Part shown: one piece after another, positions 9,421-55,739 of the stretch | How positions within the stretch are numbered: the first letter of the stretch is position 1 | Layout: every line of letters starts with the position of its first letter | Source: Bacteroidales bacterium | GTDB taxonomy: Bacteria; Bacteroidota; Bacteroidia; Bacteroidales; UBA4417 | Direction: 5' to 3' | Length of the DNA: 62,957 nucleotides | Assembly (NCBI GenBank): GCA_038212135.1 | Contig: JBBQUX010000004.1 | Coordinates: 1 to 62,957 of the forward strand | The notes under the pieces: generated by a model | What the model was told of the DNA's origin: nothing | The model's database searches: none | The model's input: the letters and a program-made list of their open reading frames with translations, nothing else | Translations under genes and position numbers: made by a program

Positions 9421-9560
9421 AATTTACCTCTTTTTTTCTTTTTATGTAACAATTAGTGCTTTCGTTTTCTTTTTATAAAGGTTGAATTGAGCACCACGGA
9501 TCAACCTGATTTTGTTTTAGTGTTATTTCTGAATATTTCTATTCAGCATTCAGTATAAAA

Positions 9561-9672
9561 ATTCCAGGATTCAAATTCCAAGTTCCAAGACTAAAAATTT
9601 CAAGTCATCTATTTTCACTACAATCAATTATTCTTCCTTAATTTCTTTGGGATCTGGAATTTGGAACCTGGT
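9561..9672. repeat. Long imperfect inverted repeat with heptamer-periodic arms in the rpsO-pnp spacer
   Basis: ATTCCAGGATTCAAATTCCAAGTTCCAAG pairs with TTGGGATCTGGAATTTGGAACCTGG (about 25 bp stem, few mismatches). Confidence 0.7.
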
Positions 9673-9725
9673 AGTTATACTTGAAGTGTGTAATTTTTTC
9701 GTTTGAACCAAGTTCGTATCAATAC

Positions 9726-9753
9726 AAAAAAAGGCAACTTGAAGATTGCCTTT
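9726..9753 (-). terminator. Intrinsic terminator after rpsO
   Basis: AAAGGCAA/TTGCCTTT stem plus T-run on the minus strand. Confidence 0.75.
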
Positions 9754-9776
9754 CTTTATAATATATCGTTTTAGTA

Positions 9777-10046
9777 TTATTTACGAAGCCCAAGCTTTGC
9801 AATAATAGCGCGATAGCGCTCAATTTCTTTCTTTTTCAGATAATCAAGCATCTTACGGCGTTTACCTACCAAACGAACCAGCGAACGCTGGGTTGCAAGG
9901 TCTTTTTTGTTTTCTTTCAGGTGCTCTGTAAGATGTTTGATGCGGAAAGTGAAAAGCGCTATCTGGCCTTCAGCTGATCCGGTATCTGCATCAGATTGAC
10001 CGTTATCTTTAAATAAATCCTTTTTAATCTCAGGCGTCAAATACAT
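9777..10046 (-). CDS. rpsO: 30S ribosomal protein S15
   Basis: DTGSAEGQIALFT, HLTEHLKxNKKD, LVGKRRxMLDYL, LGLRK; 89 aa. Confidence 0.98.
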   Translation of the reverse strand: MYLTPEIKKDLFKDNGQSDADTGSAEGQIALFTFRIKHLTEHLKENKKDLATQRSLVRLVGKRRKMLDYLKKKEIERYRAIIAKLGLRK

Positions 10047-10252
10047 ATCTGTGTAACGTTTAATTGCTTATCTTTTCATTTTTCGGGCTGCAAAATTACT
10101 ACTTTTAGTTCAAATAAAAAACTTTTGTCAGTTTTTTTATTGATTTCCCGATCAATATTATATCAATCGTAAAATTAATGAAATTGCGGCAGCAAAGATA
10201 TATACTATATTTGTATTTAAAGGTATTCGTTAAAAGAAGTTAAAAACGGATA

Positions 10253-10285
10253 TTGTTTAATATATTTAATGGTTTTATTAAACAA
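10253..10285. promoter_or_regulatory. Candidate operator upstream of crtI
   Basis: Perfect 8-bp inverted repeat TTGTTTAA-N17-TTAAACAA ending about 40 bp before the crtI start. Confidence 0.4.
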
Positions 10286-10326
10286 AACAGCTTCATTTGC
10301 GTTATTAAATAAGCTTTAAACGAACT

Positions 10327-11811
10327 ATGATAAAAAGTAAGGTTATTATAATTGGAGCGGGATTTTCGGGGCTTGCGGCAGCCTCTGTTCTGGCTCAGGA
10401 TGGTTTCGAGGTTACTGTAATTGAAAAAAACACTACTCCCGGTGGTCGTGCCCGGAAGTTTGCTGAGAACGGATTTACCTTCGATATGGGACCAAGCTGG
10501 TACTGGATGCCTGATGTTTTTGAGAAATTCTTTGCACTTTTTGGTAAAACTCCTGCTGATTTTTACGAGTTACAGCGACTCGATCCTTCGTACCGCTTTT
10601 ACTTCGGTAAGGATGAGATAGTTGACGTGCCTTCGACTTTTAGTGAAGTGATTGATATTTTCGAGAAAGAGGAAGCTGGTGCAGGAGCAGCACTCACAAA
10701 ATTCCTGGTAGAAGCGGAGTACAAATACAAAATTGCCATGAGCAAATTTGTTTACAAACCTGGTTTATCAATGTTCGAATTTGTTCAGCCCGAGATGCTT
10801 GCATCCGTTTTCCGCCTCGATATGTTCAGCTCTTTTGATAAACATCTGAAACATTACTTTAAAAGTCCGCGCCTCAGGCAGATGCTTGAATTCCCGATTT
10901 TGTTTCTGGGTGGAACTGCAAAAAATACACCTGCTCTGTATAGCCTTATGAACTATGGCGATATCAAACTGGGAACCTGGTATCCTGTTGGCGGAATGTA
11001 CAATGTGGTTGAAGGAATGGTTCAACTTGCCACTTCGCTTGGGGTAAAATTTGTTTATAACAGCCCGGTCGAAAAACTTGAGATAAATAGTGGTAAAATT
11101 TCATCTGTAATTGCTGCCGGAAAGAGTTTTGAAGCTACTTACGTTCTGGCATCGGCTGATTATCATTACGTTGAAGAACATTTGCTTCCTGATGAATATA
11201 AATCCTATTCGAAGAAATACTGGGATTCGAGGGTATTGTCGCCATCATCACTGATATTTTTCCTGGGCATCGATAAGAAACTTGAAGGAATTGAACATCA
11301 TACCCTGTTTTTCGACCAGGATCTTGGAAAACACTCGGAAGCTATATATGAAAACCCAGGCTGGCCTGAGAATCCTTCATTGTATTTCAGCTGCACATCC
11401 AAAACGGATTTAACCACTGCTCCCGAAGGAATGGAGAATTTATTTGTACTGATTCCTGTCGCACCCGGACTTGAAGATACAAAGGAGACACGTGAAAAGT
11501 ACTTCCAGATCATTCTTGACAGGTTCAAATATCTCACCGGACAGGATATCAGCGAAAATATTGTTTTCAAACGCAGTTATGCACATTCCGATTTCGAAAA
11601 TGATTACAATGCTTTTAAGGGCAACGCTTACGGACTGGCTAACACTTTGTTACAAACCGCATTTCTGAAACCGAAAATGAGGAGTAAAAAAGTTAGTAAT
11701 TTATTCTATACTGGTCAGCTTACAGCTCCGGGGCCAGGTGTGCCACCTGCACTTATTTCGGGCGAGATGGCGGCTAAACTTATTTTGAAAGAATCGGGAA
11801 AGAGTAATTAG
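10327..11811 (+). CDS. crtI: Phytoene desaturase
   Basis: GAGFSG Rossmann motif, FDMGPSWYWMPD (Bacteroidota CrtI), PGPGVPP C-terminal motif; next to crtB. Confidence 0.92.
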   Translation: MIKSKVIIIGAGFSGLAAASVLAQDGFEVTVIEKNTTPGGRARKFAENGFTFDMGPSWYWMPDVFEKFFALFGKTPADFYELQRLDPSYRFYFGKDEIVDVPSTFSEVIDIFEKEEAGAGAALTKFLVEAEYKYKIAMSKFVYKPGLSMFEFVQPEMLASVFRLDMFSSFDKHLKHYFKSPRLRQMLEFPILFLGGTAKNTPALYSLMNYGDIKLGTWYPVGGMYNVVEGMVQLATSLGVKFVYNSPVEKLEINSGKISSVIAAGKSFEATYVLASADYHYVEEHLLPDEYKSYSKKYWDSRVLSPSSLIFFLGIDKKLEGIEHHTLFFDQDLGKHSEAIYENPGWPENPSLYFSCTSKTDLTTAPEGMENLFVLIPVAPGLEDTKETREKYFQIILDRFKYLTGQDISENIVFKRSYAHSDFENDYNAFKGNAYGLANTLLQTAFLKPKMRSKKVSNLFYTGQLTAPGPGVPPALISGEMAAKLILKESGKSN

Positions 11812-41673: not shown

Positions 41674-42363
41674 TCATTCAGGCTTGTGTTTTAACAACTT
41701 TATAAGTTTCGGAATCAGAATCTTGTCCTCAAATCGCGCATGGTCAAGAAGTTCCTGTTCAAAGCGTGAAAGCTCAAACAACAGTTCATTGGCCGAATTT
41801 TCATTTACCTCCAGGGGAAGAAATTTTATCAGTATGGTTTTCAAATCGCTGAGTTTATCCTCAACATTTAAATGTTCATGCTGAATCTTGTCAGAATAAT
41901 AATTTGACTTTTCGGGAATATTTATCTGCTTATTTAAAATTTTAACAATTAATGGAAAAAGTTCAGTTTCTTCGTAATCAATATGTATTGTCAGTTGTTT
42001 TTTATATTCAAAATAATATGATTCAATCATTGCCAGTGGCTTATTTCCGGGGCATTCAGTTGAAAGTTCGGCTAGAAGATTTTCAATACGGGGCAGCGTG
42101 TACTTCAGGTAATACGTATGAGTTTGTTTCAAAAAATTAACCAGCAAATTGATTTCGACTTCTTCCGGTTTTGGGAAATATTCCTGACTGTTATACGTGT
42201 TAAGAATCGCAAGAAATGTTTTTAACTCAATTCCGTTTTGACTGCATAATGTCTTTAACGTTTTTTCGCCAACACCTGGTTTTATTCCAAACCGGTTTAA
42301 AACAGGAATCAGAAGTATATTCTGCCCGATAATGTCGGACATTTTCATGCTTTCGGTGATCAT
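41674..42363 (-). CDS. Hemerythrin-like domain protein (Ric/ScdA-like N-terminus)
   Basis: RFGI..G.GEKT...C, H.YYL, HIDYEE..LFP, EH..VEDKL, HARFEDKILIP. Confidence 0.85.
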   Translation of the reverse strand: MITESMKMSDIIGQNILLIPVLNRFGIKPGVGEKTLKTLCSQNGIELKTFLAILNTYNSQEYFPKPEEVEINLLVNFLKQTHTYYLKYTLPRIENLLAELSTECPGNKPLAMIESYYFEYKKQLTIHIDYEETELFPLIVKILNKQINIPEKSNYYSDKIQHEHLNVEDKLSDLKTILIKFLPLEVNENSANELLFELSRFEQELLDHARFEDKILIPKLIKLLKHKPE

Positions 42364-43442: not shown

Positions 43443-43895
43443 TTATTTATGCCTGAAATCCCAGGGTGGTGTGGGGTCAGGTAATGACCACAGGCCAATT
43501 TTCATTGATCGGGCATTGGTTTCCAGTTTCATCATTGTGGAATCATGATTGTATTTTGTGTAATGCCAAGCCATGCCTTGGCTGAGAAGCTCATTATTTA
43601 CACATAAATCCCCCACGTAAACAAATGCCAGGGTTCGGCCATAGCAGTCAACACCGGATTTTACGATACGTACATTTTTTTTGAAACACAAAGCAGTCGT
43701 AGCTTCCTTAGCTTTTTTTCCAAAATCCTGATCAGGTTCGGGACAGTCGATACCCTCAAGTCGGATTTTCAGCTGTTTGTTATCGCATGTAAGTATTATA
43801 ATGGAATCGCCATCGGCGATTCCGATAACTGTTGCATAAAAAACATCCGAAAAAGGGATTAATAAGAGCAGATAAGACAATAAATAGAGTTTCAT
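43443..43895 (-). CDS. Thermonuclease (SNase family)
   Basis: DGDS, IRLEGIDCPE, YGRTLA, NNELLSQGMAW, GLWS...PPW; start moved to MKLYLL. Confidence 0.88.
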   Translation of the reverse strand: MKLYLLSYLLLLIPFSDVFYATVIGIADGDSIIILTCDNKQLKIRLEGIDCPEPDQDFGKKAKEATTALCFKKNVRIVKSGVDCYGRTLAFVYVGDLCVNNELLSQGMAWHYTKYNHDSTMMKLETNARSMKIGLWSLPDPTPPWDFRHK

Positions 43896-44042
43896 TTTAT
43901 TTTGAGTTGACAAGTGTTATTAAGGATAATGTTATTTTCAACAGGGTTACAATAAAGACATTTTACAGGAAGAATTCTGAGATCGAAAAAAATGCATAGA
44001 ATTAACCTGGATTAAAACAGGCTCAGGATGCACCGCCGGAAA

Positions 44043-44258
44043 TCAGGATGCTCTCGATTGTAGTTTCTCCTTCCTTCGTTTGGCAAACTCATCCGATTCC
44101 TTCGCCAGGCTATTGATTGTTTGATTGCTTACTAAAAGCTCCAATACTTCTTCTATGCTGTTCAAATCATAATCCTTTTGAATTTGAAGCAGTTTATCGA
44201 AATTGTCACCAGCAATCTTGATCCACAGATTACTATGTAATTTTCCCCATTTATTCAT
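44043..44258 (-). CDS. Small hypothetical protein
   Basis: 71-aa ATG ORF with plausible composition; no recognised motif. Confidence 0.4.
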   Translation of the reverse strand: MNKWGKLHSNLWIKIAGDNFDKLLQIQKDYDLNSIEEVLELLVSNQTINSLAKESDEFAKRRKEKLQSRAS

Positions 44259-44653
44259 TGTTCATTTTTTCGAATTCAGTTTTGTACTATTCTGATAGCA
44301 ATGTGTCAATTTAATCCGTTTAATCTGCTATGGATTGATGTATCTTAAATATACTATCAGTTAAGCGCAGGATTCGTAATTATTTCGAAATATTTTAAGA
44401 TCAATAATTATTCCAATTCTGTATTTGTTTGATTAATAGGTTTATAGCCTACATTGACTTTGAAGTATCAGGCAAAATAAGTTCCAAAATGAAACGGCAA
44501 CAGCCTGATTATTTCTAATTGTTACAATTGATACTCAAATTCAAACAAGGTTGGAATTATATCATAAAAATATTCGATAAATTGATATTTGCAATATTTT
44601 CTCTTACTTACACACCACATCAATTGTTTTTTCAGATACGATTACTCGAAAAG

Positions 44654-44759
44654 TGTTGAGAAATACATCAGGTGTATAAAAAATATACAATATGCCTTAA
44701 GCGGTTGGAAAATAGAGTCTTGTAGGCTATATATAAAAATAGTGTATAAATATTCAACA
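44654..44759. promoter_or_regulatory. Candidate upstream activator sites (TGT-N11-ACA) for a sigma54 enhancer-binding protein
   Basis: TGTATAAAAAATATACA (44673-44689) and TGTATAAATATTCAACA (44743-44759), each preceded by a degenerate copy (44654, 44721). Confidence 0.55.
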
Positions 44760-44823
44760 TAGACTTGTGTATTATTTATTCAAACATACCTATAAAGTAA
44801 TGAAAATCAGTATTATATAATCG

Positions 44824-44839
44824 TGGCATTGTTATTGGA
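44824..44839 (+). promoter_or_regulatory. Sigma54 (-24/-12) promoter of the 44876-49461 operon
   Basis: TGGCATT-GTTA-TTGGA with correct spacing (GG rather than GC at -12), ending about 37 bp before the ATG. Confidence 0.6.
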
Positions 44840-44875
44840 TAGCAAAATGTATTATGAATTGAAATCCTCGAAATC

Positions 44876-46558
44876 ATGAAAGCAACATTCTATTTAATCA
44901 TCGGATTCTTACTGCTCTTCGCCACAAGTAGCATAAGCAGTCAAGAAATTACAAGCAAGAATACTAACTTGCAGACAGGATCAGTGTGTATCAAGTGTAC
45001 TCCTGACCTATATGAACTTACTTCTAAATGGGCCAGTGAATTTAGTAGCCTTAACCCGGAAGTGAAAATAAATGTATCTGAAGCAGACTTTGGGAGTACC
45101 GGTTTTGGAACGGGCGGGAGCCTGGGTTTTATTTCCGGCAAAGCCACGTCTGCAATCAGTAATGAATCAAACTGGAAAATGGTAGTAGGCCGCGATGTGG
45201 TTGTAGCTATTATGAATACAGAAAACCCGTTTTCGGCTGAAGTGAATAAACGAGGGATAGCGCAGGAGCAGCTTGCCCAAATGCTCATTAACCCGCAAAA
45301 GCGGAATTGGGGAGCAATGCTTGTTAACAGCCTTGCTGAACCTGTTCATATTTATATAGTAAATGATGAAACCGTTAAAGCCTGCCTGGCTAAGTTTATA
45401 AACAAAAGCAGCATCGAGTTTACGGGGATTACAGTTAGCAACAGGGACGAAGTTATTTCGGCTATTCAGAAAGACCCCTACGCTATCGGCTTTTGTGCAT
45501 TAGTTAACATTATGAATGAAAGTGACCAGGATTTAGCCGGTAATGTGACGTTATTACCAATTGACAAAAACAGAAATGGCACACTCGATTATATGGAAAA
45601 TATTTATACTGATCTCAATACTTTTCAACGTGGGGTTTGGATAGGGAAATACCCAAAATCACTTGTCAGCAATGTTTATGCTGTCAGTAGTGCTCAACCT
45701 GCAAACGAAAACGAACTGGAATTTCTGAAATGGGTAATTTCCGAAGGTCAGCAATATATGAATGCTAATGGTTACTGCGAACTGGTGGGCAGCGAGAGCC
45801 AGGCACAACTTGATAAGTTAACTATAGCTTCGGTAAATGTATCGCCGGTAAAAGATGCCTCACAAGCTGGCACTGTGTTACTTATTCTGGCTTTTGTTCT
45901 GGTTGCTGGTTTGGTGATCACTGCGGTAGTCCGGAACTACAGAAAGCAAAAAAATATAGCACCGGATTTTAATGTTTCACAGACGGGCTTTTCAGAAGAC
46001 ACCGTAATTCTTCCAAACGGTTTATATTTCGACAAGTCGCACACCTGGTCCTTTATGGAAAAAGACGGAAATATAACGGTAGGGGTTGATGATTTTCTGC
46101 AACATATTACCGGTCCGGTAACCCGCATTGAAATGAAAAGCCCGGGTGAAACTATCAGGAAAGGAGATGTGCTTTTTTCAATCATTCAATTTGGGAAACA
46201 ACTGAATATATACGCTCCTTTTTCGGGAATTATTAAAAAGCAAAATGTTAATCTTCTTTCTGATTCGTCGGTTATTAATTCGTCTCCTTATGAAGCAGGC
46301 TGGGTATATAGAATTGAGCCTTCAAACTGGATTAAAGAAGTTCAGTTAATGGATTTATCAGAAAAGTATCGTAGATGGCTTGGAGCCGAATTTATTAGGC
46401 TCAAAGAATTTATGACAGCAATTCTCAGACCGGAGAGTCTCGAATCTGCTCACGTTGTGCTTCAGGACGGTGGTGAATTGAAAGAAGGAGTCCTGGGAGA
46501 TTTCGGGCCAAAAGTGTGGGAAGATTTTCAGACAAACTTCCTTGATACTTTTAAATAG
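44876..46558 (+). CDS. PstS-like periplasmic binding domain + TM helix + cytoplasmic GcvH-like domain
   Basis: Signal peptide; WASEF...NPEVKINV, VGRDVVVAIMN, VISAIQKDPYAIGF, EFLKWVISEGQ (PBP type 2); TM at about aa 331-352; GLYFDKSHTW, VGVDDF, YAPFSG, INSSPYEAGW (H-protein fold). Confidence 0.8.
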   Translation: MKATFYLIIGFLLLFATSSISSQEITSKNTNLQTGSVCIKCTPDLYELTSKWASEFSSLNPEVKINVSEADFGSTGFGTGGSLGFISGKATSAISNESNWKMVVGRDVVVAIMNTENPFSAEVNKRGIAQEQLAQMLINPQKRNWGAMLVNSLAEPVHIYIVNDETVKACLAKFINKSSIEFTGITVSNRDEVISAIQKDPYAIGFCALVNIMNESDQDLAGNVTLLPIDKNRNGTLDYMENIYTDLNTFQRGVWIGKYPKSLVSNVYAVSSAQPANENELEFLKWVISEGQQYMNANGYCELVGSESQAQLDKLTIASVNVSPVKDASQAGTVLLILAFVLVAGLVITAVVRNYRKQKNIAPDFNVSQTGFSEDTVILPNGLYFDKSHTWSFMEKDGNITVGVDDFLQHITGPVTRIEMKSPGETIRKGDVLFSIIQFGKQLNIYAPFSGIIKKQNVNLLSDSSVINSSPYEAGWVYRIEPSNWIKEVQLMDLSEKYRRWLGAEFIRLKEFMTAILRPESLESAHVVLQDGGELKEGVLGDFGPKVWEDFQTNFLDTFK

Positions 46559-46613
46559 AAGATAAGTATATCATCTGTTCTGACCTAATTTTTAACCAAT
46601 TGAAACCAGAATC

Positions 46614-47480
46614 ATGGATCTGAATCGACGAAGTTTTTTTAAAGTAATGGGTGCAACCGGATTAACTCTCGCAGTTGGTAAGGACATGGATGCATCACCG
46701 AAACCCACCAAAGATAAAGAATTCTATGGCGTTTTATATGACTCGGCTCGCTGCAAGGGATGCCGGGGTTGCGAATACGATTGCGCCGAAGCTAACGGTT
46801 TGCCTGAGCCGCTTCCCAACAAAGAAATCAAAGGCTTGCGTAAGCCGGATGACAAGCATCGTACGGTTGTAAACGAATATAAAACATCAAAAGGAATAGT
46901 TTACGCCAAAATGCAGTGTATGCATTGCAACGAACCCGCCTGTGCGGCCGCCTGCCTCACGCAGGCTATGTGTAAAACCAAAGACGGTCCGGTTATCTGG
47001 AGGGCCGACAAATGTATGGGCTGCAGGTACTGCATGGTTTCGTGCCCGTTCGATATCCCAAAATTCGAATACCACAGTGCAAACCCTAAGATTGAAAAAT
47101 GTACCATGTGTTTCGAAACCAGGGTACAAAAGGGGGAACTGCCGGCTTGCGTGGAAAATTGTCCGAATGAGGCACTGATGTTTGGTACACGCCGCGAACT
47201 GATAACCGAAGCACGCCGGAGAATTTACGAAAAGCCGGATGAATATGTTGATCACATTTATGGTGAACATGAAGCCGGAGGAACTTGTTGGCTGCATATT
47301 TCACCGGTGCCGTTTAATGAACTGGGAATGAAATCAGTACAAACTGAATCGTACCCGGCATTGACAAAAGGATTCTTATACACCGTGCCGTCTGTGTTTG
47401 TGCTTGTTCCAGCATTGTTGTTAGGAATCCAGCAAGCAACCAAAAAGAATAACCTTAACGAAGATACCGAAGATGAATAA
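46614..47480 (+). CDS. Tat-exported 4x[4Fe-4S] protein, HybA/HmcB/DmsB type, with C-terminal TM anchor
   Basis: NRRSFFK; CxxCxxCxxxC, CMHCNEPACAAAC, CMGCRYCMVSCP, KCTMC...PACVENCP; IYGEHEAGGT. Confidence 0.9.
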   Translation: MDLNRRSFFKVMGATGLTLAVGKDMDASPKPTKDKEFYGVLYDSARCKGCRGCEYDCAEANGLPEPLPNKEIKGLRKPDDKHRTVVNEYKTSKGIVYAKMQCMHCNEPACAAACLTQAMCKTKDGPVIWRADKCMGCRYCMVSCPFDIPKFEYHSANPKIEKCTMCFETRVQKGELPACVENCPNEALMFGTRRELITEARRRIYEKPDEYVDHIYGEHEAGGTCWLHISPVPFNELGMKSVQTESYPALTKGFLYTVPSVFVLVPALLLGIQQATKKNNLNEDTEDE

Positions 47481-48735
47481 CAGGACCTTACTAGCCGCAG
47501 ATAACGATGGGAAATCCATCTGTAAGTTCCTGTTACGGGAACTGAAACCAAAAGGAAAGGCATTTACCCCTTTTAACATCATCTCTGTACCAATTATTCT
47601 TTTAGGCATAGTGTTGATTGTTTACCGTTTTATTCATGGAATCGGGGCAATTACAAATCTTTCGCAGGAAATCCCCTGGGGATTATGGATAGGATTTGAT
47701 GTGGTTACAGGCGTTGCTTTTGCCGGTGGTGCTTATGTGCTTACATTCATGGTTTACATCCTCAATATGAAAAAGTACCACTCCATTGTAAGAGTTACAG
47801 TGTTGAATGGTTTCCTTGCCTACCTGTTTTATGCAGGTGCTTTATTGCTCGATCTGGGGCGCCCATGGAATGTAATAAACCCAATTATTGGGAATAACTT
47901 TGGTGTAAGTTCAGTCCTATTCCTCGTAGCATGGCATTTTCTTTTGTATATGATTGCACAACTCATTGAATTTTCGCCTGCTATTGCCGAATGGCTTGGT
48001 GCCAGGCGGGCGCATAAAATTCTTTCAGGAATGACTCTGGCAGCTGTAATTTTTGGTATAACGCTGTCAATGCTTCACCAATCAGGATTAGGTGCGTTGT
48101 TCCTGATGGCGAAAGAAAAGATACACCCGCTGTGGTACAACGAATTTATACCGATCATGTTTTTCGTTTCCAGCATATTTGCCGGACTCTCCATGGTGAT
48201 TTTCGAAGGTTCCATCAGCCATAAAGTGTTCTCGAATCAGATCACTGATAAAAACCATAAGGCGCATAAAGGGATTGTTCACGGTTTAGCTAAAATATGT
48301 ACAGCAACACTTTTTGTGTATTTTTTCCTGCAAGTGCTGGTATTTCTTCATGGCAAACACTGGGATTTAATCAATACACCAATGGGTTACTGGTTCCTTG
48401 TCGAAATGCTCGGATTTGTGCTTGTGCCCATGATACTCTTTTTCTATAGTTTCCGCACAAGCAATAACTTTATGATCAGGCTGGCAGCACTTCTCACAAT
48501 GCTGGGTGTAATAATTAACAGGCTGAATGTTACTGTGATTGGTTTCAGATGGGATGCAGCTGTGCATTATGTCCCATCCTGGATGGAAATTGTAGTGACC
48601 CTCACTGTATTGTTTACTGAAATCTGGATTTTCAGGTGGGTAATCAACCGCATGCCTGTATTACGCGAATCACCTAAATGGGTAAATGAAACTAAAACTC
48701 AACAAGCTTTCGGAAAAGATAGTCTGAGGGCATAA
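47473..48735 (+). CDS. NrfD/PsrC-family integral membrane protein (HybB/HmcC type)
   Basis: TNLS..PWGLWIGFDV, DLGRPW, SMLHQSGLG, IHPLW, NRLNV, YVPSWMEI. Confidence 0.9.
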   Translation: MNNRTLLAADNDGKSICKFLLRELKPKGKAFTPFNIISVPIILLGIVLIVYRFIHGIGAITNLSQEIPWGLWIGFDVVTGVAFAGGAYVLTFMVYILNMKKYHSIVRVTVLNGFLAYLFYAGALLLDLGRPWNVINPIIGNNFGVSSVLFLVAWHFLLYMIAQLIEFSPAIAEWLGARRAHKILSGMTLAAVIFGITLSMLHQSGLGALFLMAKEKIHPLWYNEFIPIMFFVSSIFAGLSMVIFEGSISHKVFSNQITDKNHKAHKGIVHGLAKICTATLFVYFFLQVLVFLHGKHWDLINTPMGYWFLVEMLGFVLVPMILFFYSFRTSNNFMIRLAALLTMLGVIINRLNVTVIGFRWDAAVHYVPSWMEIVVTLTVLFTEIWIFRWVINRMPVLRESPKWVNETKTQQAFGKDSLRA

Positions 48736-48747
48736 AAAAACAATAAA

Positions 48748-49461
48748 ATGGACGGATTCACTTATACTAATATCTTTGATACAAAAGGAATTGAATACCT
48801 GATTGTTATTGCTTTCCTTTTGTTGCTCATCCCTTTCTGGCTGGCATTGAACAAGCGGGTAAAAACAAGGGAGAGGATACATAAAGCGTTGGGAGTGCTT
48901 TCTGCGAGTATGTTGCGGATTCCGCAAGGCATATTTTATAGCAAAAATCACACCTGGGCTTACCTTGAGAAATCGGGAGTGGCAAGGATCGGGCTGGATG
49001 ATCTTTTACTCCATATCACAGGCGAAGTGAGTGTAAGCCATTGTAAAAGCCCTGGCGAAACAGTAAAAAAAGGAGATTTACTGGCAGAAATTGATCATAA
49101 AGGAAAGTCGCTGAACATTTATTCTCCTATTTCCGGGGAGGTAATAAGTGCTAACTCCGTACTAAGTGTGAACCGGGAATTGCTGAACGCGGATCCCTAC
49201 GGAAATGGCTGGATTTATAACATTAAACCTTCTGACTGGGTAGCCGAAATCTCTTCGCTTTTCCTGGCAGGCAATGCAACAGACTGGTTAAAAAGAGAAC
49301 TGGTCAGGTACAAAGATTTTCTGGCTATGAGTATGCCAAAATATTCGCCCGAAACTTCGATGGTAATGCTTCAGGATGGAGGTGAACTGGTAGAAAATTC
49401 ACTATCGGAAATGCCACAGGAAATATGGCAGGATTTTCAAAAGGAATTTCTAACTCCATAA
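48748..49461 (+). CDS. Membrane-anchored GcvH-like protein
   Basis: IFDTKGIEYL then one TM; GIFYSKNHTW, RIGLDD, YSPISG, NADPYGNGW, LQDGGEL. Confidence 0.85.
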   Translation: MDGFTYTNIFDTKGIEYLIVIAFLLLLIPFWLALNKRVKTRERIHKALGVLSASMLRIPQGIFYSKNHTWAYLEKSGVARIGLDDLLLHITGEVSVSHCKSPGETVKKGDLLAEIDHKGKSLNIYSPISGEVISANSVLSVNRELLNADPYGNGWIYNIKPSDWVAEISSLFLAGNATDWLKRELVRYKDFLAMSMPKYSPETSMVMLQDGGELVENSLSEMPQEIWQDFQKEFLTP

Positions 49462-49493
49462 TATGATCCGGACAGGCCGGAACCTGAAAGGTT

Positions 49494-49667
49494 GAAAAGT
49501 CAAAAAAGCAAAGATCAAAAAGCAAAGATCAAAAAGATTGTTAAGAGAGTAACATATTTTAAAGTAAAACGAAAACAACTTTTCCTGAAAACAACTCTTT
49601 TAATAGCACAAGTATGAATATTTTGAATGACCAGAACTTTGAACTTTGAATTTTGCATTTTGAATTA
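49494..49667. repeat. Heptamer-periodic inverted repeat downstream of the operon
   Basis: Left AAAAGTCAAAAAAGCAAAGATCAAAAAGCAAAGATCAAAAAG; right ACTTTGAACTTTGAATTTTGCATTTTGAATT. Confidence 0.55.
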
Positions 49668-49811
49668 ATAGAAATGAATATTGTGCAAAAAAAAAAATAC
49701 ATCAACTTAAGAGTTTAGACACTAAAAATGGGAAATGGCTTTCCTGATTTTGAAATGCAATCTCAATGGTCGCTTCGGTATAATATCCCGGAGTAATTTG
49801 TCGAAAAATAC

Positions 49812-49840
49812 AAAAACCGGTTAATTATCGCCGGTTTTTT
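49812..49840. terminator. Terminator-like hairpin upstream of the kinase
   Basis: AAAAACCGG...CCGGTTTTTT. Confidence 0.55.
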
Positions 49841-49936
49841 GTTATATTGCGATGTCATATATACAATCCGGAATATATGCTCCTGGCTTTGAATTAAAAC
49901 TGAATAAGTATATCTGGTTCTCAAAAAAATAATTGT

Positions 49937-51607
49937 ATGGTTTTCATTAAGAAACAGAAAGAGCAAAAGAGTTTTGTACGTACTTTCTTAGGAAAATACC
50001 TCAAATTCGGACGATCCATCTATGGGCGGGTTGTGCTCATTATCACCATATTGTCTGTATTCCTGTTTGTATCGTTTGGTATTATTTTCCGTTCAGTTTA
50101 TGAGCAATACCTCAATACAGTTATTCTGCAAAGCGGAAACAATGTTGGTTCGCTGGTTGAAGGTGCTCTATCTCATTCAATGCTCGAAAATGACAAAGGC
50201 GCACTTCAGTATACACTTGATGTCATCCATACCATGCCTGGTATTGAGGATGTGAATATGTACGACAGCGATGACAGCCTGGTATATTCCTCTTTCCCTG
50301 CTGATACTTCCGGCCATTTCAATGCCAATTGTAAGGGATGCCACGCTGATATCGGCACGATGTTCCCAAAGCATGAAAAGTCGTATAAAATCATTACGGC
50401 CGAAAGTGAGTGTAAAATGAGCAAGAATACTAAAGGCCAAAGGCACCTTTTGATACGATCGCCGATTCTGAATTCGAAATCATGCTACGAAAGCAATTGT
50501 CATGCTCACGGTCCCAAAGAAAAAGTGTTAGGTTCACTCGTTATAAAAGTACCGTTGAAAGATTTTGATGCAGCGGTACAAAAGTCGTCGGTCGAATTTT
50601 ACCTGCTGGCTATTTTTACTACTATACTTCTGGCTTCCTTTCTGATTTTATTTACGCGGCGTGAGATTAAAAAACCATTAAATAAACTTATTGAAGCAAG
50701 CATTGCTGTAGCGGACGGAGATAAAAGCACTCGTGTAGAAATACGCCCCAACCAACTCGACGATATGCGTATGGTTTCGGTTGCATTTAACGATATGCTC
50801 GATAACCTACAGACAGCAACCACTGAACTCGAAAACTGGTCGCAACAGCTTGAATACAAGGTACAGAAAAAATCGGAAGAATTGGGTGCAGCCCAGAATG
50901 AACTGATGCATATTGAGAGGCTGGCTTCGCTCGGGAAATTATCGTCATCGGTTGCGCACGAAATCAATAATCCTTTATCAGGGATATTGGTTTATACCAA
51001 GCTTGTTCACAAGCAATTAAGCAATCCTGATCTTACTCCCGAAAAAAAAGAACTTATGCTTAAGCACCTGAAACTCATTGAAAACGAAACCAAACGCTGC
51101 GGCGATATTGTAAAAGGTCTTCTCGATTTCTCCAAAAAGGATCAGGAAGATTTTGAACCATTACATTTGCATACTATTTTGCAGGATACAGCCGATTTAA
51201 TGTCACATTCCATCAAAATCGCCGATGTAAAGTTTACTAAGGAATTCTCAGCCAAATCCGACCTCGTATATTGCAGCCCGAACCAGGTGAAGCAGGCGTG
51301 CATGGCCATTCTTGTAAATGCAACCGAGGCCATTACTGAAAATGGAGAAATTGTTGTGCGTACTTCGAATCCCGATCCCGATACTATCAACCTCGAAATC
51401 ATTGATAACGGCATAGGAATTGCCCCGGAAGATATCCCGCATATTTTCGAGCCCTTCTTTTCGACCAAGCAGGAAGTGCGTGGTATAGGGCTGGGACTAT
51501 CCATCGCCCATGGAATTATTCAAAGCCACAAAGGGAAAATCCAGGTGAGATCCGAACCCGGTCTTGGTACCACGATTTCGATAACATTACCTTTAATCAG
51601 AAGTTAA
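49937..51607 (+). CDS. Sensor histidine kinase (2 TM, HAMP, HisKA, HATPase) with periplasmic CxxCH and CxxxxCH motifs
   Basis: CKGCH and CYESNCH between the TMs; AHEINNPL, NATEA, DNGIG, FEPFFSTK, GIGLGLSI. Confidence 0.93.
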   Translation: MVFIKKQKEQKSFVRTFLGKYLKFGRSIYGRVVLIITILSVFLFVSFGIIFRSVYEQYLNTVILQSGNNVGSLVEGALSHSMLENDKGALQYTLDVIHTMPGIEDVNMYDSDDSLVYSSFPADTSGHFNANCKGCHADIGTMFPKHEKSYKIITAESECKMSKNTKGQRHLLIRSPILNSKSCYESNCHAHGPKEKVLGSLVIKVPLKDFDAAVQKSSVEFYLLAIFTTILLASFLILFTRREIKKPLNKLIEASIAVADGDKSTRVEIRPNQLDDMRMVSVAFNDMLDNLQTATTELENWSQQLEYKVQKKSEELGAAQNELMHIERLASLGKLSSSVAHEINNPLSGILVYTKLVHKQLSNPDLTPEKKELMLKHLKLIENETKRCGDIVKGLLDFSKKDQEDFEPLHLHTILQDTADLMSHSIKIADVKFTKEFSAKSDLVYCSPNQVKQACMAILVNATEAITENGEIVVRTSNPDPDTINLEIIDNGIGIAPEDIPHIFEPFFSTKQEVRGIGLGLSIAHGIIQSHKGKIQVRSEPGLGTTISITLPLIRS

Positions 51608-51618
51608 AGTGCCTAATC

Positions 51619-52956
51619 ATGGAGAAAAAAATATCAATACTTATTGTTGATGATGAAGAATCAGTCAGGGATTCGCTGAACAGCTGGTTTGTCGAAGACG
51701 GGTACCGTGTGGAATGTGCCGAAGATGCGAAGAAAGCGTTATCGATTCTCGAAGCCGGTAATTTCGACATTATCCTGGCCGATATTAAAATGCCTGGCAT
51801 GGACGGACTGGAAATGCTGCGCCGGATCAAAGCACTGAATAAGGAATCGATAGTAATTATCATGACGGCATTTGCCACAGTTGATACAGCCGTGAAGGCA
51901 TTGAAGGATGGAGCCTTTGATTATGTTACAAAACCTTTCGATCCTGACGACCTTTCGCACCTGATCCGCAATGCATCCAAGCAGATTTCGCTGTACCACG
52001 AAAATGAAACCTTAAAGAAAAGGGTAGATTCACTCGAAAGTGTCGAAGATTTGATTGGCAAAAGCGAAGCCATCAAAAAAGTATTACGTGAAGTTGAAAG
52101 TGTTGCCCCTACGAATTCATCTGTTATAATAACCGGCGAAAGCGGCACAGGTAAAGAACTTGTTGCCAGGGCTATACATGCTAATTCGCTGCGAAAATTT
52201 TATCCTTTGGTGAGTGTTCATTGCGGTGCCCTCACTGAAAGTTTGCTCGAAAGTGAGCTGTTCGGACACGAAAAGGGTGCTTTTACAGGAGCAATGTACA
52301 ACCGTAAGGGCCGTTTCGAAATGGCTGACTGCGGTTCTATTTTCCTGGATGAAATTGCTACTATTTCCACTAAAATGCAGATTGAACTCTTACGCGTTCT
52401 GGAGACCAAAAGTTTTATGAGGGTTGGCGGGAATAAGGAAATTACTTCTGATTTCAGGGTGATTTGTGCCACAAACCGCGATCTGAAAAGCATGGTCGAA
52501 AAAGGAACTTTCCGCGAGGACCTGTATTACCGGTTAAATGTGATGAATATTCATGTACCTCCATTGCGCGAACGTGTGGAGGATATTCCATTACTGGTTG
52601 AGTATTTCATCAGGAAGTATTGTACCTCTATGAACCGGCCGCTTATCACTGTCGATGCACCGGCTCTGAAACGGATGCTCGACTACGCGTTTCCGGGCAA
52701 CATCCGCGAATTGGAGAATATGGTGGAACGTGCTATTGTTGTTGGCAATGGTAAAAAAATAATGCTGAAAGATCTGCCTCTGGCTAAAGATGTTGTTGAT
52801 AGTTCCATTGAGAGTCTGGATGATTTTGAAAAAGCATTTATCCTTCAGATCCTGAACAAATACAGCTGGAATATCTCCCGCACCGCTACAGCACTGAAGG
52901 TTGACAGGGTGACACTGTACAACAAGATTAAGAAGTATGGGTTGAAACCGAAATGA
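51619..52956 (+). CDS. NtrC-family sigma54-dependent response regulator
   Basis: REC (VDDE, DIKMPGMDG, KPF), GESGTGKE, GAFTGA, FLDEI, FREDLYYRL, PGNIRELEN, Fis-type HTH. Confidence 0.96.
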   Translation: MEKKISILIVDDEESVRDSLNSWFVEDGYRVECAEDAKKALSILEAGNFDIILADIKMPGMDGLEMLRRIKALNKESIVIIMTAFATVDTAVKALKDGAFDYVTKPFDPDDLSHLIRNASKQISLYHENETLKKRVDSLESVEDLIGKSEAIKKVLREVESVAPTNSSVIITGESGTGKELVARAIHANSLRKFYPLVSVHCGALTESLLESELFGHEKGAFTGAMYNRKGRFEMADCGSIFLDEIATISTKMQIELLRVLETKSFMRVGGNKEITSDFRVICATNRDLKSMVEKGTFREDLYYRLNVMNIHVPPLRERVEDIPLLVEYFIRKYCTSMNRPLITVDAPALKRMLDYAFPGNIRELENMVERAIVVGNGKKIMLKDLPLAKDVVDSSIESLDDFEKAFILQILNKYSWNISRTATALKVDRVTLYNKIKKYGLKPK

Positions 52957-53031
52957 TGTCGGATATCGGATGTCAGATCTGCAATATTCACTCTTCACGA
53001 ATCACCAACCACAAATCGTTTCAACAACTGA

Positions 53032-53565
53032 ATGGATCATCCAACTATAACTATAGTATCATTTGCACATCTCAGGAGGGGATTTCTTGAGAAGCTCAGT
53101 GCGGATGTTCAGCATCAACTGCAAAGCCAGGTGTTGATAAAAGAGATGCACCTCGATTTAAGTGAATATTTTGACGCCGGACGCAGGCAATACAATGGTG
53201 ATAAATTGCTGAAAGCGGTTGATCAGTTTGATTTTCCTAATTCTGATAAGACTATTGCCTTAGTTAATGTTGACCTTTTTATTCCTATACTAACCTATAT
53301 TTTCGGGCAGGCACAATTAGGAGGCCGTACAGGTATTGCTTCCATATACCGCCTTAGCAACGAGCGCTACGGGATTTCGGATGGCGATAATTTCCTGCTG
53401 CAACGGTTCACTAAAGAAGTGATTCATGAACTGGGTCATTTATTCGGGTTAATTCACTGCCACACACCCACCTGTGTAATGCGCTCAAGCACCTACGTGG
53501 AGGATATCGATCAGAAGGGAATGGGGCTTTGTTCCAAATGCAGGTACGAATTGAAGCTGGATTAA
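53032..53565 (+). CDS. Archaemetzincin (M54) zinc metalloprotease
   Basis: RRQY, DLFIPILTYIFG, HELGHLFGLIHC...CVM...C..C. Confidence 0.92.
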   Translation: MDHPTITIVSFAHLRRGFLEKLSADVQHQLQSQVLIKEMHLDLSEYFDAGRRQYNGDKLLKAVDQFDFPNSDKTIALVNVDLFIPILTYIFGQAQLGGRTGIASIYRLSNERYGISDGDNFLLQRFTKEVIHELGHLFGLIHCHTPTCVMRSSTYVEDIDQKGMGLCSKCRYELKLD

Positions 53566-53582
53566 AATCCGGTCAACGAATC

Positions 53583-54185
53583 TCACATATGAAATTTTAC
53601 TCCTTTACTTAACATCTCTATTATTTCTTTCATTCGCTTTTCTCTTGTTTCGGGTCTTTTGGCAGTTTGTATCCTCCAGCATATAGCATATTTATTTACT
53701 TTGCCGAGCGATTCGTAAAACGTAAAAGCTTTTTTATCCTTTGTAAGTTCAGCGAGGAAATCCTCCGGCATAACCATATTTCCCGGCGAGTCGTAGGCCT
53801 GCTCCCAGCGACCATCAGATTTGGCAGCTTCAACCTGTTTTATTCCCGTGGGTTTCATCCGGCCTTCTGTTGTGAGCCTGGCAATATGTTCAATATTCCG
53901 TTTCGACCAAATGCTTTTGGGGCGGCGGGGTGTAAAATGCTGTTTGTAAGAAAGTTCATCAATTGATTTCAACTGCGCATCGATCCAGCCATAGCAAAGG
54001 GCAACATCCAATGCCTCAGGATATGTAACAGATGCAATACCAGAACCTTTTTTGTAAAACTGGAGCCAGATGCCATTCGCCTCAAGGTGGTTTTGCTCAA
54101 GCCATTGTTCCCATATTTGCGCATTTGCAAACGGAATAATTTGCTGATCTTCTTTACCAGGTTTGTTCTTATCCTTAGCAGTCAT
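53583..54185 (-). CDS. YdeI/OmpD-associated family protein
   Basis: ALCYGWID, FTPRRPKSIWS, AKRPETREKR. Confidence 0.9.
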   Translation of the reverse strand: MTAKDKNKPGKEDQQIIPFANAQIWEQWLEQNHLEANGIWLQFYKKGSGIASVTYPEALDVALCYGWIDAQLKSIDELSYKQHFTPRRPKSIWSKRNIEHIARLTTEGRMKPTGIKQVEAAKSDGRWEQAYDSPGNMVMPEDFLAELTKDKKAFTFYESLGKVNKYAICWRIQTAKRPETREKRMKEIIEMLSKGVKFHM

Positions 54186-54689: not shown

Positions 54690-55739
54690 TTATTGATTGT
54701 CATCCGTATAAACCCTGTTCTCCTGTTCAGCTACACGAATAAAAGTTGTCCGCTTGGTAAGTTCTTTCAGTTGCGATGCTCCCACATAGGTACAGGTACT
54801 GCGAATGCCGCCCAAAATATCGAGCAAGGTATTTTCAACCTGTCCACGGTAAGGAACTTCAACAGTTTTACCTTCGCTGGCGCGGTAATCGGCAACTCCG
54901 CCTGCATGCTTGTCCATGGCAGTGGTAGAACTCATTCCGTAAAACTGTTTCAGTTTTTTACCGTTTTTTTCAATAATGTCACCACTACTTTCGTCGTGCC
55001 CCGCCAGCATACCTCCCAGCATTACAAAGTCAGCACCTGCTCCGAAAGCTTTTGCTACATCGCCTGGTGTAGTGCACCCGCCGTCGCTGATGATCTGGCC
55101 ACCCAGTCCGTGAGCTGCATCGGCACACTCAATAATGGCTGAAAGCTGAGGGTAGCCGACGCCCGTTTTCACGCGCGTGGTGCAAACCGAACCCGGTCCG
55201 ATACCTACTTTAATAATGTCGGCACCAGCCAGTAAAAGCTCTTCAACCATTTCGCCTGTAACAACATTGCCGGCAATGATCACTTTATCGTGAAATTTTT
55301 TCCTGGTTTGTTTCACAAAAGCTACAAAATGTTCGGAATACCCATTGGCCACATCTATACATAAAAACCGCAACTGTGGGTTAGCAAGGATAACTTTACT
55401 GATTTTATCTAAGTCGTGCGATCCTGTGCCAGTACTCAATGCAATGTGGTTTTCGATTCCTTTAGGTGCTTTGCTTAAAAAATCAGTCCACTCTTCAACT
55501 GTATAATGTTTATGAACTGCAGTGAATAATTTCTTTTCATACAAGGCCAATGCCATTTCGAAAGTGCCTACCGTATCCATATTGGCTGCCATTACCGGAA
55601 TTCCGGTCCATTCGGAATTGCTGTGTTTAAGGCGGAACGTACGTTCGAGTTTTACCAGCGAACGGCTGCTCAGCGTCGAGCGTTTCGGCCTGAACATCAC
55701 ATCTTTAAATCCTAATTTTATTTCATATTCTATTCGCAT
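54690..55739 (-). CDS. guaC: GMP reductase (type 1)
   Basis: [46 protein letters not shown]. Confidence 0.97.

Follow-up and report, generated by a model that had tools for sequence, protein, structure and literature searches.

The protein pairs HybA/HybB and HmcB/HmcC pass electrons between quinone and a periplasmic catalytic or cytochrome subunit, and H-proteins are soluble lipoyl carriers for GcvP, GcvT and GcvL. Here we describe a locus that combines relatives of both. It occupies positions 44654-53565 of a 62,957-nt stretch of contig JBBQUX010000004.1 of a Bacteroidales bacterium (the window, by which we mean the whole stretch) and consists of seven genes, numbered g1 to g7 from 5' to 3'. 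The constant feature of this locus and its relatives is the association of proteins with the H-protein fold (H-fold) with an inner-membrane quinone:periplasm electron module and a dihaem-motif histidine kinase. The system is a new and widespread variant of the NrfCD-type respiratory modules, having H-fold partners not described before and its own haem-motif/sigma-54 controller. The seven-gene set probably controls electron flow between quinones and periplasmic cytochromes.

The first-pass annotation of this DNA had proposed seven co-oriented genes with domains of these kinds, and the open reading frames (ORFs) of the window together with Pfam and NCBIfam matches confirmed both their positions, all on the + strand, and their domains:

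44876-46558, +: g1, 560 aa; signal peptide, periplasmic PBP_like_2 domain (PBP; residues 33-290), transmembrane (TM) helix (about residues 331-353), cytoplasmic H-fold (residues 383-496) and conserved C-terminal extension of about 60 aa
46614-47480, +: g2, 288 aa; HmcB/HybA-like ferredoxin exported by the twin-arginine (Tat) route, with four Cys4 motifs and a C-terminal TM anchor
47473-48735, +: g3, 420 aa; NrfD-family membrane subunit of the HmcC/HybB type, overlapping g2 by 8 nt
48748-49461, +: g4, 237 aa; TM helix preceded by a short conserved periplasmic segment and followed by a cytoplasmic H-fold, a long helix and a small C-terminal subdomain
49937-51607, +: g5, 556 aa; sensor histidine kinase with a periplasmic PAS/PDC-like domain (residues about 52-218, 50090-50590), HAMP, HisKA and HATPase_c
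51619-52956, +: g6, 445 aa; NtrC-type response regulator with REC, sigma-54 AAA+ domain (Sigma54_activat, GAFTGA), AAA_lid_14 and HTH_8
53032-53565, +: g7, 177 aa; cytoplasmic archaemetzincin (M54) with HELGHxxGxxHC and a C-terminal CxxC

The topology of g1 was deduced from hydrophobic segments and flanking positive charges.

Among the closest described systems are the Hmc/Nhc complexes of sulfate reducers (HmcB-HmcC and NhcB-NhcC, together with a multihaem cytochrome c). Like them, the locus pairs a ferredoxin that is exported by the Tat route and bears four Cys4 motifs with an NrfD subunit free of haem, and g2 and g3 find their best NCBIfam matches in HmcB and HmcC. A sister form of the system, described below as type B, even has its own c3/HmcA-like 13-haem cytochrome. 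The window cluster differs from Hmc/Nhc in lacking HmcA, HmcD, HmcE and HmcF, in scoring below the equivalog cut-offs, in its additional genes (two for H-fold membrane proteins and one each for a dedicated haem-motif kinase, an NtrC activator and an M54 peptidase), and in its host, which belongs to the Bacteroidota and not to the Desulfobacterota. The pair HybA-HybB of Escherichia coli hydrogenase-2 is the same kind of two-subunit electron and proton module, and key HybB residues are kept in g3; however, identity is only 29%, three HybB residues are replaced, and hydrogenase genes are missing from the window genome and from four of five carriers.

In regulatory logic (sigma-54 promoter, NtrC-type activator, quinone:cytochrome module), the system parallels the inner-membrane quinol oxidase CbcBA (Cbc5) of Geobacter sulfurreducens. 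The accessible text of the preprint on cbcBA (bioRxiv 10.1101/2021.04.15.440034) reports a sigma-54 promoter, the NtrC-type regulator BccR and induction at low potential; the operon also encodes two hypothetical proteins and a receiver protein, and a REC-AAA+-HTH activator is adjacent. The Geobacter module, however, consists of a dihaem cytochrome b and a 7-haem cytochrome c instead of an NrfCD pair, and the same text reports no M54 peptidase. The Geobacter proteins GSU0597 and GSU3489 are called only 'hypothetical' in the accessible parts of the literature. For an orphan NrfCD pair of Melioribacter roseus, the available portion of PMC3534657 proposes that it feeds periplasmic multihaem cytochromes, and a review of the NrfD family, as far as its text is accessible (PMC8076601), lists HybB in no Bacteroidetes and NhcC in two and does not use the word 'glycine'. 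The first-pass annotation knew of no characterisation of the present arrangement; in agreement with this, a search of full-text literature, with most subscription journals outside its coverage, returned no description of H-fold proteins combined with HmcBC/NrfD and a kinase/sigma-54 controller.

Conservation of the locus and its distant relatives

A scan of one genome per species with g4 yielded at least 298 encoding relatives, and 80 loci were kept for comparison. By their record titles, these are almost all from metagenome-assembled genomes of Bacteroidales/Bacteroidia; the 80 loci also include cultured Sunxiuqinia species (L039, L040, L047 and L049; cultured carriers are S. dokdonensis, S. 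elliptica and S. indica) and 'Bacteroidales bacterium 6E'. In tblastn searches with the seven proteins, gene order and strand were the same in the 80 loci wherever the contig reaches, and all seven ORFs were complete and in this order in 51 of them; many of the 29 without a complete set are short contigs. Exceptions were L073, without a match for g2 or g3, L080, with partial g2 and no match for g3 or g6, and L078 and L079, with fragmented matches. Clustering of the flanking ORFs of the related loci revealed no conserved neighbours beyond g1-g7, the largest flank cluster comprising six loci. The upstream neighbours in the window itself fell into no sizeable cluster, and the downstream ones recur in at most six loci, in close relatives such as L001. 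These observations support g1-g7 as one conserved unit. ORF starts in the related and distant loci were set by a simple rule and may be some codons off, and three entries listed as g4 (L076, L079 and L080) are C-termini of g1 and were excluded from the alignment.

Beyond these close relatives, a profile of the H-fold proteins collected 1,123 clusters at 50% identity (E <= 1e-30); judged by length, 93 of the best 150 cluster representatives are PBP-fused (520-600 aa) and 51 are TM-only. The ESM Atlas yielded nothing but GCV_H clusters from Bacteroidota. The g4 profile matched 67 of 401 genomes and 49 of 180 genera in a sample of the phylum, numbers that overstate the family because the threshold used (E <= 1e-20) also admits some canonical GcvH. 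The 66 matching genomes other than our own were all labelled 'same phylum', with none labelled as of the same order or class, even though the records of the 80 close loci bear Bacteroidales names; the close form seems confined to families barely touched by this even sample.

Fifty-six distant loci were annotated with the domains of the window, the H-fold hidden Markov model and counts of CxxCH motifs, and they fall into two types. Type A has the order of the window: a TM-H-fold protein of about 220 aa that lacks the PBP domain, HmcB, HmcC, a second H-fold protein of about 270 aa, kinase, NtrC and M54. This neighbourhood survey, which the first-pass annotation had proposed as a check, showed that 35 distant loci with plain H-like genes encode HmcB and HmcC in 31 cases, kinase and NtrC in 28 and M54 in 26. 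The whole core set is present in 23 of the 35, which again speaks for one conserved unit. The second H-fold protein of distant type A loci (L088:10798-11631, L095:10648-11469 and 19 others) is not predicted to be membrane-bound and matches no Pfam family at its N-terminus, where 21 of 25 such proteins carry a C-x12-C-x5-C-x2-C pattern (CxWxxAGxxxYxLCxxxFxCxxC), a possible zinc or iron-sulfur site.

Type B comprises 24 loci (L099:1348-8575; L091, L092, L094 and L122-L141) with the order HmcB, HmcC, a 13-haem c3/HmcA-like cytochrome, a kinase of about 625 aa and two response regulators with H-fold output. The cytochrome follows HmcC directly in all 24, and in L092:2178-4560 the two are fused in a single ORF of 795 aa; further cytochromes with 14 to 19 haem motifs lie downstream in 11 of the 24, often as a series of 19, 16, 4 and 14 haems. 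The kinase has a sensor homologous to that of g5 and a zinc-ribbon insert. The regulators measure about 265 and 385 aa, and the longer one keeps the C-terminal extension of g1 and g4 and has an N-terminal TM helix in the four examined. Its homologues are labelled 'response regulator' in Ignavibacteria (NCBI) or 'CheY-like/glycine cleavage H lipoate-binding protein' (JGI). L091 and L092 carry a type A and a type B system side by side. The M54 gene accompanies NtrC and is missing from pure type B loci. Given the 13-haem cytochrome of the sister system, the Fe-S/NrfD pair is most simply a cytochrome c:quinone module of the Hmc/Nhc type, and the initial idea of a system built on H-like domains was given up.

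Electron module, promoter and sensor

The ferredoxin g2 belongs to Pfam Fer4_11. Its best NCBIfam match is HmcB, at 319 bits (cut-off 420), followed by HybA at 230 bits (cut-off 263), and HybA and FdnH types are its next-best matches. Its twin-arginine motif, RRSFFK, has an invariant R5 and an R6 kept in at least 90% of sequences. Sixteen cysteines are conserved (C47/50/53/57, C102/105/110/114, C134/137/140/144 and C163/166/179/183), 15 of them invariantly and C179 in at least 90%. The membrane subunit g3 scores 47.9 bits against a gathering threshold of 25.8 for Pfam NrfD, which places it in this family, marked by a conserved acidic residue on TMH2 and a Ser close to the quinone pocket; its NCBIfam matches are again HmcC first (391 bits, cut-off 550) and then HybB (255 bits, cut-off 450). 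A search of PDB sequences with g3 returned no match. In comparison with E. coli HybB (NC_000913.3), residues D127 (HybB D109), S147 (S129), R107 (R89), Y117 (Y99), E166 (E148) and H202 (H184) are invariant or nearly so in 69 g3 sequences, as are the further HybB equivalents Y141, E155, K198, H200, E291 and R329. The accessible text of PMC8076601 lists these HybB residues as important for quinone handling and for the proton path on the cytoplasmic side (N-side).

Neither HmcA (16-haem) nor HmcE (cytochrome b) nor HmcF (HdrD-like) was found among g1-g7 or in the window flanks, and a 13-haem c3-like cytochrome occurs in the sister system only. On contig C1 of the window genome (60230-73743; L142:3731-17244), a multihaem cytochrome cluster encodes proteins with 8, 5, 20 and 35 CxxCH motifs, the 5-haem one with a sorting tail for the type IX secretion system. 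These cytochromes are possible periplasmic or extracellular partners of g2-g3. A cytochrome b561, a dihaem peroxidase and a ferredoxin-flavoprotein are encoded near this cluster. Because a module of the Hmc/Nhc kind without a cytochrome gene coincides with multihaem proteins elsewhere in the genome, we read g2-g3 as a putative menaquinone:cytochrome c oxidoreductase, which may work in either direction.

The first-pass annotation had also held that the usual partners of such modules are missing. For hydrogenases and molybdoenzymes this stood, whereas a cytochrome partner is present in the sister system. NiFe hydrogenase (PF00374) was absent from the window genome, which is 82% complete, and from four of five cluster-bearing genomes, and a molybdopterin enzyme (PF00384) was absent from the window genome and from carrier G004. 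Taken alone, absence from an 82% complete genome is weak. G002 and G003 do have a molybdoenzyme gene, 1-2 kb away from another NrfD gene; in the window genome, g3 is the sole NrfD gene. These results support the view that a hydrogenase or molybdoenzyme partner is not needed, and the dependence on a hydrogenase or formate dehydrogenase encoded elsewhere, which the first-pass annotation had named as the finding that would speak against a system of its own, was not encountered in these genomes.

The region upstream of g1 contains a putative sigma-54 promoter preceded by palindromes resembling upstream activating sequences (UAS):

44672-44690, +: distal UAS-like palindrome GTGTATAAAAAATATACAA, 204 nt before the g1 start
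44742-44760, +: proximal UAS-like palindrome GTGTATAAATATTCAACAT; consensus in relatives GTGTTGA-N5-TCAACAC
44767-44787, +: third, weaker GTGT...ACAT repeat, seen in the window sequence
44824-44838, +: sigma-54 type -24/-12 promoter TGGCAT-TGTTA-TTGG, 52 nt before the g1 start

Both elements had been noted at first pass and are conserved: 57 of 63 related loci have the promoter motif TGG[CT]A[CT]-N5-TTG[ACG] in the 400 nt upstream of g1, and 53 of 63 have a GTGT-N10-14-ACA[CGT] palindrome, typically about 90 and about 180 nt ahead of the -24 element. The initial pattern, restricted to TTG[CG], had matched in 24 of 64 loci and was widened to TTG[ACG] once the sequences had been inspected. Since the pattern was thereby tuned on the same loci, the control lies in its rarity elsewhere in them, with 80 occurrences in the whole + strand of 1,116,878 nt. 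The -12 element reads TTGG in the window and mostly TTGA or TTGG in relatives, so that the consensus TGGCAC-N5-TTGC with its -12 GC is not present. A search of the whole window with the strict consensus, allowing one mismatch, gave five matches against 3.8 expected, missed the real site and was dropped as a test. The motif precedes 15 of 30 distant operons that begin with an H-fold gene (type A) and none of the 24 that begin with HmcB (type B, which have no NtrC). RpoN is encoded in the window genome. With REC, a Sigma54_activat domain bearing GAFTGA, HTH_8 and a -24/-12 target with palindromes, g6 has the features of an NtrC-type enhancer-binding regulator and is the predicted activator of the promoter upstream of g1. 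Motif conservation thus supports a conserved unit with its own predicted sigma-54 promoter and UAS.

The periplasmic loop of the kinase g5 contains the motifs CKGCH and CYESNCH. Exactly one CxxCH and one Cx3-4CH occur in the first 260 aa of all 122 kinases compared (68 from Bacteroidales-type loci, 32 from distant type A and 22 from type B), and in the g5 sensor CxxCH, Cx4CH and an extra Cys and His are invariant. The structural model of the sensor (pLDDT 78.8) has a PAS/PDC fold; its best Foldseek matches are the extracellular domains of WalK, and the c-haem sensor of Geobacter GSU0935 (3b42) ranks sixth to seventh with E about 1e-4. The Pfam family Mcp40H-20_sensor gives a weak 13.3 bits for g5 (cut-off 27) and 20.4 bits for the type B kinase, and the only match among PDB sequences had E = 2.3. 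The sensor thus presumably is a periplasmic dihaem-motif domain that would perceive redox state or a haem ligand. In its modelled PAS-like fold with a c-haem attachment motif it resembles the periplasmic sensors of the Geobacter chemoreceptors GSU0935 and GSU0582. These have one haem motif each, whereas g5 has two (CxxCH and Cx4CH) and a histidine kinase output. The last gene, g7, scores 156.9 bits with NF033823 (cut-off 145) and contains the zinc motif HELGHLFGLIHC and CSKC; the motif is conserved in 65 sequences, and g7 is a predicted M54 peptidase.

H-fold domains and the proposed function

The H-fold was recognised in g1 and g4 by GCV_H scores of 80 and 79 bits, in g4 after the N-terminal TM helix. 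An AlphaFold2 model of g4 (pLDDT 84.6) shows a TM helix at residues 7-48, the H-fold at 62-167, a long helix at 175-199 and a small C-terminal subdomain. In Foldseek, it superimposes on the solved H-proteins 1onl, 3a8i and 3ab9 with a TM-score of 0.91 (normalised to the target), a root-mean-square deviation of 1.3-1.6 A and 34% identity. The domains thus have the barrel-sandwich fold of H-proteins and share with GcvH, LbpA and GcvH-L the motifs HxW, GxDD, PxSG and GW. They nevertheless differ from GcvH in several respects: the family is membrane-anchored or receiver-fused, with an extra C-terminal extension of about 60 aa, a canonical column devoid of the lipoyl Lys and no link to GcvP/T/L. 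With 560 and 237 aa and TM helices, g1 and g4 depart from the soluble protein of about 130 aa, and they fall short of the curated GcvH models, scoring 75-82 bits with NF002270 (cut-off 117) and 62-72 bits with TIGR00527 (cut-off 115.85). A canonical GcvH is encoded elsewhere in the window genome, as a 128-aa open frame on contig C8 scoring 141.7 bits. Within the extension common to both paralogues, W180, G211, G212 and F234 are invariant across 27 divergent sequences.

Gapless HMMER and MAFFT alignments of g1- and g4-type proteins place a Gly in the column of the canonical lipoyl Lys, so that the lipoyl-lysine motif E-[SA]-V-K is missing. The next residue is a Lys (K120 of g4), kept in at least 90% of the g1-type as well as the g4-type proteins from Bacteroidales-type loci, and this conservation made the initial description 'lipoyl-less' insecure. 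In distant family members, however, K, R, N, H, G, A, T, E, D and Q are all found at this position, and no Lys stands in the canonical column apart from the poorly conserved K118 in the row of the window protein. Such variability fits an electrostatic or structural role and does not fit a modification site. The H-fold domains of g1 and g4 are thus probably without lipoate, as had been proposed at first pass, and lipoylation of the conserved Lys was dropped as the principal explanation.

At the opposite side of the membrane, F10, T12, K13, G14, E16 and Y17 of the g4 N-terminus are invariant, and this segment may be where g4 touches the module on its periplasmic side. Residues 1-17 (48748-48800; MDGFxYxNIFxTKGIEY) are near-invariant in Bacteroidales-type loci, recur in the distant L116 and are absent from most distant TM-H-fold proteins. 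A multimer prediction of g2, g3 and g4 with alignments (score 0.14, mark 0.32) gave no answer and counts as evidence neither way.

Taken together, we favour, with moderate confidence, an Hmc/Nhc-like cytochrome c:menaquinone module that is induced by the periplasmic haem-motif sensor and carries the H-fold proteins as cytoplasmic accessory or regulatory subunits. The genes would form two transcription units of one conserved system, g1-g4 and g5-g7. The first, read from the sigma-54 promoter, would encode the haem-free NrfCD-type module, in which the four Cys4 motifs of g2 are read as four [4Fe-4S] clusters in the periplasm and g3 would provide the menaquinone site and a path for protons to the cytoplasm. 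The analogy of Hmc/Nhc/Qrc suggests that g2-g3 moves electrons between the menaquinone pool and multihaem c-type cytochromes of the periplasm whose genes lie elsewhere in the genome, with the H-fold proteins g1 and g4 placed, as we infer, at the cytoplasmic face. The PAS-like domain of g5 with its two c-haem attachment motifs presumably reads the periplasmic redox state or a haem ligand; g5 would phosphorylate g6, which may then bind the GTGTTGA-N5-TCAACAC-like palindromes and open the promoter. One of the components may be a substrate of the archaemetzincin g7. That the H-fold proteins regulate is hinted at most strongly by type B, in which the H-fold would be under direct phospho-control, as the output of two response regulators beside a homologous kinase in 24 of 24 loci.

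Several observations weigh against this proposal. The window cluster itself has no cytochrome gene, and g2 and g3 lie under the NCBIfam equivalog cut-offs of both HmcB/HmcC and HybA/HybB, which points to a separate subfamily whose substrate could differ. HybB residues E133, S105 and S190 are replaced in g3 by L, A and A. Among the 35 distant loci with plain H-like genes, four lack HmcBC. Two of the four have other quinol:periplasm modules in its place, which for its part fits the proposed class of partner. One, L086, has H-fold genes, kinase, NtrC and M54 together with a divergently oriented 680-aa fusion of a 12-CxxCH cytochrome c7/c3 and a cytochrome b561 (9540-11582), which resembles Geobacter CbcL, followed by two more multihaem genes. 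The other, L098, has a 4-haem C554/NapC-like cytochrome c. L103 has neither HmcBC nor a flagged cytochrome, and L116, which ends at a contig end, has HmcC and no HmcB. Seven of the 35 have no histidine kinase/NtrC nearby, four of them with several kb more of sequence, so parts of the system can exist apart. Finally, the canonical GC is missing from the -12 element, and half of the distant type A operons are without the strict promoter motif.

A more specific and tentative proposal, which we consider rather unlikely, is that the H-fold without lipoyl Lys is a new signalling or gating domain for NrfD modules. Tethered where the proton path opens to the cytoplasm, it would decide whether quinone turnover is coupled to proton uptake; its control would run through gene expression in the sigma-54 type and through phosphorylation in the Ignavibacteria type, while the dihaem kinase would read the redox state of the cytochrome pool. 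If this were true, the system would be a switch matching energy conservation to the available redox span, and the H-fold would represent a previously undescribed class of response-regulator output domain.

The H-fold proteins could instead be assembly, stabilising or targeting factors for g2 and g3 with no regulatory role, which we consider rather unlikely. This would agree with the apparent co-transcription of g1 and g4 with g2-g3 (gaps of 55 nt between g1 and g2 and 12 nt between g3 and g4), with H-like genes adjoining HmcBC in 31 of the 35 distant loci with plain H-like genes and in all 24 of type B, and with the specific contact suggested by the invariant periplasmic motif of g4. The fusion of the H-fold behind receiver domains beside a dedicated kinase is, however, hard to square with a pure chaperone, and two paralogous H-fold genes are kept per system.

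Lipoyl carriers outside glycine cleavage have precedents in LbpA of the sHdr systems and GcvH-L of Streptococcus. The H-fold proteins might likewise be genuine carriers, their hairpin Lys lipoylated or otherwise modified, acting as membrane-tethered swinging arms for thiol, redox or sulfur chemistry. The conservation of K120 in Bacteroidales, the closeness of the domain to true H-proteins and the canonical GcvH in the genome, which makes lipoylation enzymes presumably available, all favour this reading. We nevertheless judge it improbable: the Lys stands one residue past the canonical column, where Gly is found, its position is variable in distant members, and genes for lipoate ligase, GcvP/T and Hdr are not conserved in or beside the cluster. 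Moreover, according to the accessible text of PMC8076601, NrfD modules have no cofactor for electron transfer across the membrane to a cytoplasmic arm.

Periplasmic ligand binding had been placed at the core of the system by the first-pass annotation, with a PBP domain that binds a solute and signals across the membrane to the H-fold. The PBP-TM-H-fold fusion is indeed common (the 93 of 150 representatives given above) and kept in Bacteroidales-type loci. However, no PBP match was found in any of the 56 distant loci, where the first H-like gene measures only about 220 aa, and PBP is the least conserved segment of g1. Its scores are 28.1 bits for PBP_like_2 (cut-off 27) and 32.8 bits for the PstS-type model TIGR02136 (cut-off 206.6), and its best PDB sequence match is weak (E = 0.22), so that no ligand can be assigned. 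A ligand-sensing device is therefore a doubtful reading, and ligand binding was withdrawn as the core of the system.

On a last reading, the Fe-S/NrfD pair would anchor in the membrane a hydrogenase, formate dehydrogenase or other molybdoenzyme whose genes lie elsewhere, and its neighbours would be incidental. This agrees with HybA/HybB and FdnH as next-best matches but is very improbable, and was rejected on the absence of PF00374 and PF00384 in the searched genomes and on the proximity of the molybdoenzyme genes of G002 and G003 to other NrfD genes.

Surroundings and wider meaning

The spacer between g4 and g5, 475 nt long, contains a terminator-like hairpin:

49812-49839, +: 10 pairs followed by a T-run, the longest stem among such sites in 44200-53800

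Ten terminator-like sites in total were counted in 44200-53800, not above the 8.6 of shuffled sequences. At 49500-49540 and 49620-49670 the same spacer is repetitive, with aaagcaaagatcaaa present twice in short tandem and with recurring 'tttgaa(c/t)tttg' words. A scan of 44000-53800 matched no family of Rfam. The flanking genes are all on the - strand:

41674-42363, -: hemerythrin-domain protein
43443-43913, -: staphylococcal-nuclease homologue with a hydrophobic N-terminus
53583-54185, -: YdeI/OmdA protein
54690-55739, -: GMP reductase/IMPDH-family protein

In a read search, at least half of the words of the locus were present in four DNA runs, whose labels are freshwater, sediment and aquatic metagenome and the best of which may be the sample of origin; no RNA run was among the matches.

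Anaerobes commonly have orphan NrfCD/HmcBC pairs, and for the study of how these are wired and regulated the system described here provides a conserved and widely distributed context. Its defined promoter and operator, its haem-motif sensor and its cultured carriers also make it accessible to experiment. Thousands of proteins automatically annotated as 'glycine cleavage system H protein' or 'CheY-like/H lipoate-binding protein' very probably act outside glycine cleavage. Should the H-fold proteins regulate coupling, the system would be relevant to the way in which bacteria with multihaem cytochromes tune their energy yield to redox potential, which has mainly been studied in Geobacter.

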